Positions 26,389 through 31,822 are shown, numbered from the stretch's first letter. The stretch is 32,000 nucleotides of DNA from an uncultured Opitutales bacterium (GCA_934660865.1 CAKUIA010000014.1:37354-69353), one strand, 5' to 3'. The notes: generated by a model not told the origin, from the letters alone. Program-made: numbers and translations.

Positions 26389-27702
26389 CTACAAATATTT
26401 TGTCCAGTTGGGAATGTAGTTTTCTACACCGCCTAAAATTATCAGATTTTGCGGGTTAAGATTTTGCTCTTTAAAAAATTTGCGCCAAAGGGTTTTGTTC
26501 CTAAAATCGGTTATGTCGCCCAAAATTACAACGGCATTGTTCCTTGCAAAAAATTCGGCAAGAGTTTTTGGGTCTTTAAATTTTGGGTTTAAAAACACAA
26601 ATTTTTCGGATTTTAGCTTGGAAAGTAAAAGGGTATTTAAGTCTCCTTCGGCTACAACGGTTTTGTAGGCGGTATGCAAATTTGGGGTGTTGCCAATGCG
26701 CGCAAAGGCGGGGTTTGCCTTTAAATGTTCGGCAATTTCCATGCCGTATTTTTGCCCCAAAATTTTTTCGTTTGGGTTTAAAATGTAGATAGGCAAAGCG
26801 CTTTTGTTGCCGACTAAAACTTCGTTTTTGGCAAACTTAAGGGGAATGTAGCGCCTGTAGAAATACGAAATTAGAAAAACCGCAAAAGCCGCAAGGCAAA
26901 ATAGCGAAAATGTGCGCGCATAAAATTTTATGCACAAAAACCTTTTGCGGTTTATATACAAAGCCGCGCATAAAAACAAAACTGGTATTGCCCACAAAGC
27001 CCAAAATGTTGCAATGTTGCTGAAAAAAGAATTTGAAAAAAAGGCAAGCCACGCGGCAAAGGCCGCGGCACTTACAAAGCTTTTTTTATATGCAAATGTT
27101 GCGCAAAATATAAAACTCCAAAACAAAATATACAAAAGTTTAAGGGGAACTCCGGCGCGGTTTAAAAATTCCAAGTGCGAGTTTATCAGGGTGTTGTATC
27201 CTTCGTTTGTATACATTTTTTGATACCAAAGCATGTAGATTTTGGCGGGAGTTGTTCCGTCTTTAAAGCCGCAGGGGGCATCGGTAAGCATTTTAATTCC
27301 AGCCGAATACAAGTCGTAGCGCACGTTTGCCGACGAGCTTTTTAAAAGCACCATATCGTGTATTCTTTCGTTAAAGCCAACGGAATTTGAATATAAAAAA
27401 GCGCATAGCCCCGCCAGACAAACGGCAACTATTTTTAATTTTGTAGAGCGAATGGGGGCCATTATAAGAAAGGCAATAAACGCAAATATTAGCGAAAGCA
27501 AAGCCCCGCGCGAATATGTTTGTATTAAAAAGCAACCCAAAATGCCGTTTGCAATTAGCACAACCCAAAACGCCCACCGCCTATTTATGCCCAAAACAGC
27601 CCAAAAAGTTACCATAAGCAGCACAATAAACGCCCCCGTTTTGCTTATGCTGCCGGCCCCCAAATAAAACCAGTCTAGCCTTTCTATTGTAGATAAAACC
27701 AT
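26389..27702 (-). CDS. Wzy_C (O-antigen ligase/O-oligosaccharyltransferase-like) membrane protein with a ~150-aa C-terminal soluble extension
   Basis: 437 aa. It has the Wzy_C-type motifs QTYSRGALLSL and a periplasmic-loop NSHLEFLNRAGVPLKLL. The SRG motif sits unusually close to the N-terminus (about residue 62). The C-terminal part from about residue 290 is non-hydrophobic. Confidence 0.65.
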   Translation of the reverse strand: MVLSTIERLDWFYLGAGSISKTGAFIVLLMVTFWAVLGINRRWAFWVVLIANGILGCFLIQTYSRGALLSLIFAFIAFLIMAPIRSTKLKIVAVCLAGLCAFLYSNSVGFNERIHDMVLLKSSSANVRYDLYSAGIKMLTDAPCGFKDGTTPAKIYMLWYQKMYTNEGYNTLINSHLEFLNRAGVPLKLLYILFWSFIFCATFAYKKSFVSAAAFAAWLAFFSNSFFSNIATFWALWAIPVLFLCAALYINRKRFLCIKFYARTFSLFCLAAFAVFLISYFYRRYIPLKFAKNEVLVGNKSALPIYILNPNEKILGQKYGMEIAEHLKANPAFARIGNTPNLHTAYKTVVAEGDLNTLLLSKLKSEKFVFLNPKFKDPKTLAEFFARNNAVVILGDITDFRNKTLWRKFFKEQNLNPQNLIILGGVENYIPNWTKYL

Positions 27703-27712
27703 TTTTGCACGC

Positions 27713-28567
27713 TTATTGTTGTTTGTTTTGCAGTTTTGTGTTTATCTTTTCTTCAATCGAAAATGGGTTGTTTATTTCGTTTACGACATAGCTTTTGCCG
27801 CTTTCTTTGTCGATAACGGTTGTCCCCGCGGGCAAATGCAATATGTCGCAAACATCAACATTCGTTTTAACCGATTTTTCGTTAATAAAAAACTCGGCAA
27901 AAGAAAAGGGCTCTTGCTTTTGATTGTAGAAGGTGTACGAAATTTTTAACGGAATGCGGTATTTCCCGAAATTTTTATGCGATTCATATTTTATTTTTTG
28001 ATAAATACTTGCAGAATTGTCTGCATTTTCGTTATACAAAAGAATTTCGCAAACAAGAAGGGATTTTTTGTCGATTTTCAATTCGTAGAGTTTTTCGAAT
28101 TTTATAGAAATCGTATCTTTTTGGTTTAAAATTTTCACGGAAGCTTTGTCTGCATTTTTTAAAATCTCGAAATAACTTTTGCCGTTATAGGGGCTAGTCC
28201 ATGCACTGATTATATCCAGAACTTTAAATATAATTGGGTTTTTGCTAAATATTGCAGAGTTATTGCCGTCCTTTAAGGTTCGCAAAACTTTGTAGCCATT
28301 GGCTAAAAAACTTGCATTTAATTTTGTGTAGGGCAAATCTTGCCCGTTTGTGGGCTTAGTTTAGTAGTTATATTCGTTTGCAACAAAGTTGTGGGCAATG
28401 CGGTTTGCCGATTTTAAAGTTTGTTTTTCGCCGTTTGTTTCGGTTTTTGTGTACGAAAATTCCATGCAATTAGGCAAATTGTTCGCCTTTAAGATATCGT
28501 CTATAAGCGAGGCTTTTGCAGTTAGGCAAAACTGCGTGCAAAGCAGAAAAAAGATTATTTGTTTCAT
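27713..28567 (-). pseudogene. Secreted LolA-like paralog interrupted by a single in-frame TAA
   Basis: ORFs 28361..28567 (signal peptide MKQIIFFLLCTQFCLTAKA) and 27713..28336 are in the same frame. They are separated only by a TAA at 28363..28361 and 8 sense codons. The joined length of 284 codons matches the 275-aa paralog at 29963..30790, and the N-terminal piece aligns with the N-termini of the paralogs. Confidence 0.6.
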
Positions 28568-28571
28568 ATTC

Positions 28572-29951: not shown

Positions 29952-29962
29952 ATATGCCCGTT

Positions 29963-30790
29963 TTATTCCAAGATTTTCTCGATAACCGCTTCTTCGCGTG
30001 TTGTAATCGACGAACCGCTTACAACGTATTTTTTGTTTTGTATTGTATCGTTTACAATAGTGCCTTCGGTTATGTCGATTTTTAGCTGGTTTTGTGTTAT
30101 GTTGTTAAAAGAAATATTGCTTAATTTATATATGCAATTTAGCAAAAGCTTCCCGTTCTCGTCGCAGTATGTAATATGAATTTTAGTTGGAAATTTTACG
30201 CCGCCTATATTTTCGAAACTTTCAAATACGGCTTTTTGCCCGATGTAAACGCCGTTTTTTACGGAAAATTTTGTTTCTATTTTCTTTGGCAAAAACGAAG
30301 TTTTATCGAAAAATATATTGTATGTTGTGTTTGATAACTTTATTTGATTTTCGCTTTCTTCGACAGTAAATTCCTTAAAGTTTTGCTTGTTTAGAATTGG
30401 GCTAAAGAGATTGTAAGGGTCTATAAAGGCCGCCAAAACTGCGGGGAAATTTGTTAGCCCGTTGTCTTTAGTTATTGCAACAGAAGTTGTTTTTCCTTTC
30501 TCTATAATGCCCGAAGTTAAAACGCCGTTTGAATACGAAAAGCAATCTCCTGCATTGTTTTTGTTTAGCTCTATTGCCTTATATGCTTTTGACACTGTGC
30601 TAAAAACTACACCGCCTTTTTGCGCCGGCAAATCTGCATTGTCTGTCTTTTTGATGTTTTCGATTGTATACGAAAAGGATATTCCGCTATACGGGAAGAA
30701 CGACTGAACGAATAAATCGGCACTGTTTTTCCCGAGTGCAAAAACGGCATTAGCTGTTATTAGGCAAACTGCAAATATTAGCTTTTTCAT
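29963..30790 (-). CDS. Secreted hypothetical protein, member of the three-paralog family (possible LolA-like lipoprotein-sorting fold)
   Basis: 275 aa with signal peptide MKKLIFAVCLITANAVFA. It shares the blocks ISFSYT, NIGGVKFPTKIHITY and EGTIVNDTIQNKKYVV with the two other paralogs. Confidence 0.5.
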   Translation of the reverse strand: MKKLIFAVCLITANAVFALGKNSADLFVQSFFPYSGISFSYTIENIKKTDNADLPAQKGGVVFSTVSKAYKAIELNKNNAGDCFSYSNGVLTSGIIEKGKTTSVAITKDNGLTNFPAVLAAFIDPYNLFSPILNKQNFKEFTVEESENQIKLSNTTYNIFFDKTSFLPKKIETKFSVKNGVYIGQKAVFESFENIGGVKFPTKIHITYCDENGKLLLNCIYKLSNISFNNITQNQLKIDITEGTIVNDTIQNKKYVVSGSSITTREEAVIEKILE

Positions 30791-30793
30791 ATA

Positions 30794-31822
30794 TTATTTA
30801 TTGTTGTGTTTTTTTTGTTTGTCTTTGTCGGCCAAAGTATCGTTAAGCGCTTTTAGTATAATGTCTTCGGGCTTTAAATTTTCCGAAAACTTAGAGGCGC
30901 GGTAATTTTTCTTTGATACGGTATCTAAAACATCGCACCCGTTCGGAAATAGAATATATAGGTAATCTTTTTCGCTTTCGTTGAATTTTATGGAGCTTTG
31001 CTTTATCCATATTTTTACATTGCTATTTACTTGGCTTTCTTCGCACAGATTTATTTCCACATTCCTCGGGAAAATCCCGAATTTAGTTTTAATATTTTCG
31101 TTTACTTTAATCGAATACGATATTTGTGTTTCGAGCGCCCGGCTGGTAGTTGTTATATCCATTTGTTTTATTTCGTGCGTGCTTTTGTCTAAATAAAACT
31201 TAATGCCGGTATCGGGATAATATAAAATTAGCTTGTCAGAATCTTTTAAAATCTTTGCGTTTTTGCCTTTTAACAGCTGCGAGTAAACAACGGGGTTTTG
31301 CCCATATTGGTAGAATGTCCATAATATGGACGGTAGCGGCGGGCGAATTGGTGTGAATTTTTCAATATATCCGACACTGTGCGTGTCGACTTGCGCTTTT
31401 AGGGCGTTTGAATTGTCTTTGTCCAAAACAAATTTATCGGCACCGTTGAAAAACAACATTGTGGTAATTTTGTCCTTATATACGGTTGTAGTATCGTTTT
31501 CGTATAAAAATTTGCCGTTTTTGGCAGAGAACACTCTTTCGTGTAGGCGGTAATTGCACGAATTATTGTCCATATAAAAACTGCCGAATATTTTTTGTGT
31601 GTATGTTTTGCCGATACCGTGTTCGGGTTCTACATATTCCGTAATTTCTTCGATAAAATCAAACGATATGGAATTAAACTCGGCCAATTTTTGCGGCATA
31701 AAGTTTAAAGGCTGCAAGTTGGTTTGGCCCGCAAAACATTTTAGGGATATGCAGACAAAACACACGCGATAAAGAATTTTTGCGAAAAATTTATCCATAA
31801 TCTGCAAACCTTCGGCTTTCAT
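30794..31822 (-). CDS. Secreted hypothetical protein, longest member of the paralog family
   Basis: 342 aa, or starting at M9 (nt 31798), which gives MDKFFAKILYRVCFVCISLKCFA. It shares the blocks ISFDFI, TKFGIFPRNVEINL and NGCDVLDTVSKKNYRA. Confidence 0.45.
   Translation of the reverse strand: MKAEGLQIMDKFFAKILYRVCFVCISLKCFAGQTNLQPLNFMPQKLAEFNSISFDFIEEITEYVEPEHGIGKTYTQKIFGSFYMDNNSCNYRLHERVFSAKNGKFLYENDTTTVYKDKITTMLFFNGADKFVLDKDNSNALKAQVDTHSVGYIEKFTPIRPPLPSILWTFYQYGQNPVVYSQLLKGKNAKILKDSDKLILYYPDTGIKFYLDKSTHEIKQMDITTTSRALETQISYSIKVNENIKTKFGIFPRNVEINLCEESQVNSNVKIWIKQSSIKFNESEKDYLYILFPNGCDVLDTVSKKNYRASKFSENLKPEDIILKALNDTLADKDKQKKHNNK

Follow-up and report, generated by a model that had tools for sequence, protein, structure and literature searches.

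A tightly packed, strain-variable island of LolA-fold, YD-repeat and Wzy_C-type genes in a human-gut Opitutales bacterium, and the larger envelope cluster of which it appears to be a reduced copy

The 32,000-nucleotide (nt) stretch of an uncultured Opitutales genome that was analysed here as a whole (CAKUIA010000014.1:37354-69353; the window) carries a strain-variable, tightly packed envelope island of five genes, labelled A, B, YD, C and Wzy_C (Table 1). The host is a human-gut member of the Opitutales (Verrucomicrobiota): the neighbouring EutB falls in a protein cluster named Opitutales bacterium, the YD gene has relatives in metagenome-assembled genomes of uncultured Opitutales and in Candidatus Merdousia gallistercoris, and metagenome matches are mostly from the human gut. 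To our knowledge, almost no envelope or competition systems have been characterised in the Verrucomicrobiota of this habitat. An earlier reading of the DNA, made without database searches (the sequence-only reading), had described five co-directional, low-GC genes, and the calling of open reading frames (ORFs) and of GC content bore it out: all five lie at the positions it gave, on the minus strand, with gaps of 3, 11, 4 and 10 nt, and GC is 35-40% at 27-32 kb versus 45-50% over most of the window. A scan of the minus strand for sigma-70 promoters and terminators gave nothing usable. Four of the five products (A, B, C and YD) carry predicted signal peptides, each with one N-terminal hydrophobic segment and an A-x-A-type site, as judged by eye and by hydropathy scan. 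Comparison with related loci indicates that the island has been cut down from a larger envelope cluster, itself undescribed, and that this copy is eroding, a state that the sequence-only reading, which missed the pseudogene, the flanking insertion sequence (IS) and the loss of the island from most conspecific strains, did not recognise.

Table 1. Features of the island and its borders, in window coordinates (aa, amino acids)
Feature	Position	Strand	Remarks
A, LolA-fold paralog	30794..31822	-	342 aa; alternative start at 31798 gives 334 aa; predicted Sec-type signal peptide
B, LolA-fold paralog	29963..30790	-	275 aa; predicted signal peptide; protein modelled with AlphaFold2
YD, short RHS/YD-repeat protein	28572..29951	-	459 aa; predicted signal peptide; TIGR01643 match
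C, LolA-fold paralog, pseudogene	27713..28567	-	directly after YD; in-frame TAA
In-frame TAA stop splitting gene C	28361..28363	-	
Wzy_C, divergent Wzy_C-type polytopic membrane protein	26389..27702	-	437 aa; PF04932 match
3' end of Wzy_C kept in island-less strains; deletion scar and island boundary	26389..26450		62 nt; blastn of window against L015, alignment A5
Last codons (..VECGVKL, then stop) of presumed ISL3-type transposase gene flanking the island	31977..32000	-	

Genes A, B and C encode three divergent paralogs. Neither Pfam nor NCBIfam matches any of them, and pairwise BLASTP similarity is weak (E-values of 1e-5 for B-A, 6e-4 for B-C and 0.02 for A-C). A hidden Markov model (HMM) of the family was built solely from members found elsewhere, with the window sequences excluded; it recovered B at 2.6e-57, A at 1.6e-47 and the large and small fragments of C at 1.3e-33 and 2e-7, and had zero matches among the other 302 stop-to-stop ORFs of the window. 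Because this independent model finds all three and no other window ORF, the paralogy proposed in the sequence-only reading is real. Its description of C as a split gene also stands, with the refinement that the interruption is a single in-frame TAA and involves no frameshift; among its shared sequence blocks, the N-terminal one given as ISF[SD][YF] reads MEFSY in C, and the blocks it quoted are in the order B, C, A. A word-indexed search with B among 5.8 billion proteins returned its own 97% twin alone, and an exhaustive profile search of 1.84 billion proteins yielded 35 representatives at E<=1e-3, all of 250-360 aa. The conserved blocks of the family alignment (A3) are Q..FPF.SISF.Y, FD..T..L, G..FP..I and P.G..V.D.I..K.Y.VT...KE..I..L.

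The LolA-like fold suggested for these proteins was confirmed by structure prediction for B. A 34-sequence alignment was needed: with four window-level sequences AlphaFold2 gave a predicted local distance difference test score (pLDDT) of 46 and the model was discarded, whereas the larger alignment gave a pLDDT of 87.9 and a predicted template-modelling score (pTM) of 0.80. The model has the unclosed antiparallel beta-barrel, or half-barrel, of the LolA/LolB superfamily, and its significant Foldseek matches in the PDB are almost all LolA, LolB, RseB, DUF1329, ependymin or VioE structures (E 5e-10 to 1e-3; template-modelling scores up to 0.55 on the query and 0.64 on the target). NE2245 (3buu) ranks first, at 5e-10, and the further matches at E<=1e-3 include LolA3 and LolB of P. 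gingivalis, LolA from four species, RseB and ependymins. Sequence models are silent by comparison: curated LolA-clan models (Pfam LolA, LolA_like, DUF4292 and others) match no window protein at E<=1, and PDB sequence searches with the LolA-like profile gave nothing significant. Sub-threshold matches to DUF4292, which we take to be a member of the LolA/LolB clan, occur in 3 of 34 family members (best 1.4e-4); a second Pfam scan of 10 LolA-like members gave no DUF4292 match, the earlier ones having come from other members. The model thus supports a LolA assignment for the fold but not for the sequence, where the curated models of the clan find nothing in the window. Genes for LolCDE and LolB, the partners of LolA in lipoprotein transport, were seen neither in the window nor in the related loci. 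A, B and C are predicted Sec-exported members of a small, unnamed family with a LolA/LolB-type open beta-barrel as its core and conserved motifs at both termini.

The YD-repeat and Wzy_C labels given to the two remaining genes also proved correct. YD matches TIGR01643 (YD_repeat_2x) at 24.2 bits against a cut-off of 15.8, and the Pfam RHS_repeat model matches 5 of 16 YD orthologs (best 7e-4). The protein carries an Rhs-like GYGWWFG block near its N-terminus and YD hairpins up to about residue 440; an RHS core is absent (NF041261 RHS_core, 13.7 bits against a cut-off of 2000), and neither a DPxGL motif nor a toxin domain was found in it. Its homologs form 16 clusters of 44-55% identity, with 75% mean column identity in the ortholog alignment (A4), and their C-terminus is conserved, not variable; a PDB sequence search with the YD family profile gave nothing significant. 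The same alignment reveals a near-invariant Cys22 just past the signal peptide and an invariant Cys142, which suggests that a conserved disulfide is more likely than lipidation; the presence of rhodanese and MauE/DoxX genes in the full clusters described below would be in keeping with such a bond. A lipoprotein reading of the YD and LolA-like proteins was rejected, as a canonical lipobox is absent.

The fifth gene product matches PF04932 at 42.5 bits (7e-11; gathering cut-off 31.7) and is an N-terminally shortened WaaL/Wzy-type membrane protein. The hydropathy scan indicates about 8 hydrophobic segments, and the subfamily alignment (A6) shows SSSANxRxDxY and NSHLEF to be invariant motifs of an 80-residue loop. 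R128 and H176 in this loop do not vary among 14 members of the subfamily and are presumably, going by the WaaL motifs, the counterparts of the WaaL catalytic residues. An extra, conserved soluble domain of about 150 aa follows at the C-terminus. The best PDB sequence match of the Wzy_C profile is WaaL 7tpg at a non-significant E of 0.18, with no other match; profile positions 50-122 alone align, to WaaL residues 171-247, and the N-terminal 170 or so residues of WaaL have no counterpart. WaaL has twelve transmembrane (TM) segments, and the island protein has neither this architecture nor the location among lipopolysaccharide-core and O-antigen genes of a WaaL-type ligase proper. The subfamily is limited to about 32 clusters in 5.8 billion proteins. 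The wider Wzy_C family also includes protein O-glycosyltransferases.

HMMs for 11 cluster components were applied to 36 related loci, 33 of which extend far enough for the neighbours of YD to be counted. A LolA-like gene lies directly after YD in 30 of these 33, often with overlapping start and stop codons. The five-gene synteny that the sequence-only reading had proposed to look for is not conserved as a unit: the layout of the window recurs only in a sister strain (L001), minus gene C, and elsewhere the core is YD plus a LolA-like gene. Complete clusters of about 15 genes occur in related gut Opitutales, in the order [C39]-DUF1573-esterase-like-esterase-like-Wzy_C-rhodanese-MauE/DoxX-125aa-TPR protein-rhodanese-YD, continuing after YD with Cys-rich protein-LolA-like-C39-DUF1573-like-DUF1573-Wzy_C, and in a distant relative (L050, 35-39% identity) one operon contains all of these parts, with Wzy_C present once. 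The island holds YD, Wzy_C and three LolA-like genes, without the Cys-rich, C39, DUF1573, rhodanese and MauE genes; in full clusters, C39 and DUF1573 genes stand between the YD and LolA-like core and the Wzy_C gene. Island Wzy_C is a full-length ortholog of the 455-456-aa Wzy_C protein that ends related clusters, and it and YD are equally diverged from their cluster counterparts (51-53% and 52-55% identity). Gene context supports a functional link among the island genes. In one lineage, the Merdousia-type loci, the YD and LolA-like pair occurs with no Cys-rich, C39 or Wzy_C gene nearby.

Two adjacent secreted proteins of the full clusters (270 and 361 aa; L019:1215-3088, with equivalents in L007 and L050) share a YGFSGGAQ motif. 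Pfam yields no significant match for either of these esterase-like proteins; the motif is typical of serine alpha/beta-hydrolases or esterases, a class to which both may belong, and the two are conserved in all full clusters.

Among L019, L034, L038 and L039, YD is 98-100% identical, whereas the LolA-like protein is 24-32% and C39 32-51% identical; conversely, L034 and L036 have YD proteins of 71% identity, yet their LolA-like, C39 and Cys-rich proteins are each 100% identical. At the nucleotide level homology ends 17-28 nt short of the YD stop codon and returns inside or after the C39 gene. The Cys-rich, LolA-like and C39 genes form a cassette whose flanks share 89-99% nucleotide identity. 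The cassette lies at L019:9523-11046 and L034:10325-12052, with equivalents in L038, L039 and L036, and at least 7 allelic types exist. The gene after YD belongs, in the parent cluster, to a hypervariable, recombining three-gene cassette. The Cys-rich proteins are of 120-176 aa with 8-10 Cys and begin with a hydrophobic N-terminus, followed in most by K-S-x-[LM]-[YF]-G-G. The C39 protein combines the catalytic Cys and His motifs with a signal peptide and a C-terminal TM segment (L019:10976-11593, L010:10828-11448, L007:11561-12187). This stand-alone peptidase is therefore predicted to face the periplasm, an unusual placement, as C39 domains are normally cytoplasmic parts of ABC exporters. In the Merdousia-type loci, which have no such neighbours, the LolA-like protein is not hypervariable (92-99% identity versus 96-99% for YD). 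That LolA-like diversity tracks the Cys-rich and C39 genes suggests, on comparative grounds, a protein partner and not a lipid.

These observations bear directly on the function first proposed for the island, in which an envelope system builds or shuttles a lipid-linked or glycosylated surface component: Wzy_C would make or transfer a lipid-linked glycan or other lipid, and LolA-like proteins would take this cargo across the periplasm, with YD as a scaffold. The LolA-type fold of B speaks for it, as do the co-conservation of Wzy_C with YD and LolA-like genes in most clusters, the invariant loop Arg and His of Wzy_C and the two alpha/beta-hydrolase-like secreted proteins with their GFSGGAQ motif. 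A precedent exists in LolA2/LolB2 of F. johnsoniae, pathway-dedicated LolA/LolB paralogs encoded in flexirubin loci (PMC11885536). Precomputed Pfam calls and the 11 cluster HMMs, however, place no glycosyltransferase, flippase, sugar-nucleotide or other sugar-synthesis, or lipid-synthesis gene inside any related cluster. Merdousia-type loci hold the YD and LolA-like pair without Wzy_C, a common lipid cargo fails to explain a LolA-like protein of 24-32% identity where YD is 98-100% identical, and it fails equally to explain why that variability is lost where the Cys-rich and C39 genes are absent. A lipid or glycan shuttle of this kind finds little support here and we consider it unlikely.

The history of the island itself can be read from conspecific strains. 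The stop in gene C is present in loci from two further samples, and in the sister strain L001 (~98% identical), which keeps A, B, YD and Wzy_C, a deletion bounded by two short direct repeats, AAACAAATAAT and AAACAACAATAA, has reduced gene C to a stub of 5 codons (window 27725-28553 versus L001:3472-3482). Recoding of the TAA was rejected in view of this deletion, and C is a pseudogene. At least 17 conspecific contigs of ~91% nucleotide identity have umuDC after eutC in place of the island, and the island-less strains keep, between these genes, the 3'-terminal nucleotides of Wzy_C listed in Table 1 (L015:12230-12292). The presence of this Wzy_C remnant in island-less strains shows that the island was lost by deletion rather than gained by the strain of the window; recent insertion into a naive site was rejected for the same reason, and the island was thus ancestral and has been deleted in most conspecific strains. 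Directly upstream of gene A lies the C-terminus of a transposase gene (..EGFHRKMKLIQRRAYGYRNFENYRLRVLVECGVKL, then stop; L004:1-177), which we take to be of ISL3 type from its C-terminal motif EGFHRKMKLIQRRAYGYRNFENYRLR rather than from a database match; the four long contigs that reach this transposase all end there, within ~330 nt upstream of gene A.

The ratio of non-synonymous to synonymous substitution rates (dN/dS) between window and L001 is 0.28-0.44 for the four intact island genes, with A at 0.44, and 0.01-0.09 for the neighbours eutB, eutC, dctM and dctP. Summed over the four intact genes there are 42 synonymous and 52 non-synonymous changes, where roughly 20:74 is estimated under neutrality, values that indicate relaxed but persisting constraint. 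Were the island non-functional debris of a deleted cluster, with no current role, one could point to the nonsense codon in C and the deletion of that gene in L001, to the at least 17 conspecific contigs retaining the 62-nt scar alone, to the adjacent IS element and to dN/dS values 4-30 times those of the neighbouring genes. Such an explanation is nonetheless very unlikely: two strains ~2% apart have kept four of the five reading frames intact, substitutions depart from the neutral estimate, and the gene spacing of 3-11 nt is preserved.

LolA-like genes without a Cys-rich partner are not peculiar to the window. Extra copies of this kind are found in L020, L022-L024, L044 and L025; those in L020 (15500-20300) and L044 (11471-13889) form orphan arrays downstream of the main cluster, some members of which are split or truncated. 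B is 42-43% identical to a widespread 277-aa orphan type (P0042; L020 18009-18842), and the B-type orphan cluster counts 382 member sequences at >=90% identity. The closest relative of A elsewhere is P0044, at 30% identity, and C is an ortholog (39%) of an intact 292-299-aa cassette allele of L019/P0043. In two loci a singleton LolA-like gene is preceded by a 93-95-aa ORF in which a rhodanese N-terminus is fused to a YD C-terminus (L025:9693-9980, L027:4224-4505); most of the rhodanese and YD genes has been deleted here, and the ORF is what marks the site.

A model can be proposed in which the LolA-like proteins are cognate periplasmic binders. The LolA-like protein would be a periplasmic binding partner whose conserved termini work with the invariant YD protein and whose variable barrel holds the cognate Cys-rich protein once the C39 protease has freed the latter from its membrane anchor. 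For the Wzy_C-type protein the model has a step at the periplasmic face, where it would use a substrate, undecaprenyl-linked or protein, that all versions of the system have in common. The three divergent LolA-like genes of the window would then be partner-less orphans, as the window lacks Cys-rich and C39 genes; the simplest reason for keeping them would be to neutralise or handle the Cys-rich proteins of neighbouring strains, an immunity-like role analogous to that of orphan immunity genes next to Rhs loci. We hold this view of the LolA-like genes, as cognate binders left here in an immunity-like or handling role, tentatively, as a serious possibility that falls somewhat short of probable.

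Protein partners could also be accommodated if the LolA-like proteins were carriers or assembly chaperones serving strain-variable, Cys-rich surface antigens under phage or host pressure, the orphans of the window being cargo-less leftovers. The covariation of Cys-rich, LolA-like and C39 genes would follow, the full clusters do include Ig-like DUF1573 and Wzy_C-type proteins, and the island, with its pseudogene, deletions and raised dN/dS, is being lost. Leftovers, however, sit poorly with orphan LolA-like genes that are widely kept without a partner, as the size of the B-type cluster illustrates, or with A, B, YD and Wzy_C that are intact in two strains at dN/dS clearly below 1, and we regard the chaperone account as doubtful.

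Returning to the cognate-binder model, several considerations weigh against it. All its mechanistic steps are inferred from gene context, the docking of YD with LolA-like proteins purely so. The known cargo of the LolA fold is lipids and acyl chains; neither protein cargo nor a part in immunity is known for it. Merdousia-type genomes conserve YD and the LolA-like gene alone, and the pair therefore has some function for which neither a Cys-rich partner nor Wzy_C is needed. The C39 gene co-varies with the cassette, which simple leader-peptide recognition would not require; the Cys-rich proteins have no recognisable toxin domain; and no outer-membrane exporter was identified by the 11 cluster HMMs or the precomputed Pfam calls. 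The rest of the genome to which the window belongs may, moreover, hold a full cluster elsewhere.

The polymorphic toxin/immunity pattern of a conserved upstream gene, a variable pair, breakpoints and orphans is seen in the related loci, with no toxin domain, and the window is without a small variable gene. The parent cluster has a fair chance of being a polymorphic envelope system of a new kind. Its fullest version would comprise an invariant Sec-exported RHS-repeat protein, a recombining cassette that encodes a disulfide-rich GG-motif effector, a LolA-fold cognate binder or immunity protein and a periplasmic C39 protease, and, in support, the rhodanese/MauE, DUF1573, esterase-like and Wzy_C-type proteins, the window being an effector-less, orphan immunity-like array; taken with all its parts together, this undescribed system of gut Opitutales is a conjecture that we think rather unlikely to hold throughout. 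LolA-fold proteins are usually regarded as lipid or lipoprotein carriers; were the conjecture true, it would be the first case of a LolA fold turned to the strain-specific recognition of proteins in conflict between bacteria, and a cognate-binder or immunity role would add a new fold and a new architecture to the bacterial polymorphic systems. An unnamed LolA-fold family is, in any event, tied to a YD-repeat protein and in related strains ranks among the most variable genes of the locus. Even without a mechanism, three new protein families are defined (the LolA-like proteins, the short YD proteins and the truncated Wzy_C subfamily), and the strain-level contrasts are available as a testable set.

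Next to the island, a compact ethanolamine module occupies window positions 20244-26350. It comprises eutBC, a TRAP transporter (dctPQM) and a cobalamin adenosyltransferase-like gene, and genes for a microcompartment shell were not seen in the window.

Set against what is known, the system is a new variant built from known folds: no described system of this composition was found in databases or in the literature, as the sequence-only reading had surmised. Literature searches on DUF1573/O-antigen ligase/C39, on LolA-like/YD repeat and on MauE/rhodanese/C39/double-glycine returned no such system, a paper on lipocones (LolA-like and polymorphic) was judged not relevant, and PADLOC and PHROGs gave no match, so that nothing speaks for phage origin or for one of the known defence systems. 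With double-glycine/C39 bacteriocin systems the related loci, though not the window, which has none of these parts, share a GG motif in small Cys-rich proteins beside a C39 peptidase. They differ in that C39 stands alone with a signal peptide and an anchor rather than being fused to an ABC exporter, and in that the segment before the GG is hydrophobic and not an amphipathic leader. With WaaL, Wzy and PglL the fifth protein has in common the PF04932 match, a periplasmic-loop-like segment with invariant Arg and His motifs and a best PDB match to WaaL. It is set apart by its smaller number of hydrophobic segments (about 8, not 12), the missing first ~170 WaaL residues, the additional C-terminal domain and the lack of glycan-synthesis genes nearby.

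For the logic of the locus, Rhs/YD polymorphic toxin loci are the closest precedent, although their defining core and toxin are absent here. Alike are the YD repeats, the Rhs-like N-terminal GYGW block, the recombination breakpoint, which in the related loci falls at the very 3' end of the YD gene with a variable cassette beyond it, and the arrays of orphan downstream-type genes. Unlike Rhs proteins, the 459-aa YD protein of the island is Sec-exported and without RHS core, DPxGL autoproteolysis motif or fused toxin; the variable small protein, which has no representative in the window, is encoded by a separate gene with its own N-terminal hydrophobic segment, and no genes for a type VI secretion system or other delivery machinery were seen.

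The LolA-like proteins are best compared with the LolA/LolB carriers (P. gingivalis LolA3 9tp6, NE2245 3buu and F. johnsoniae LolA2/LolB2), with which they share a predicted open beta-barrel with an internal helical or loop segment, a Sec signal peptide and a soluble periplasmic form. The island family departs from these carriers in having no Pfam LolA match, in a conserved C-terminal module (P-x-G-x-x-V-x-D...K-x-Y, a helix and a charged tail), in its obligate pairing with a YD-repeat gene and in an allelic hypervariability that tracks a Cys-rich partner. The flexirubin paralogs LolA2/LolB2, likewise extra copies placed inside a specialised cluster and not with lolCDE, offer the closest precedent for dedicated LolA/LolB paralogs in a specialised locus (PMC11885536).

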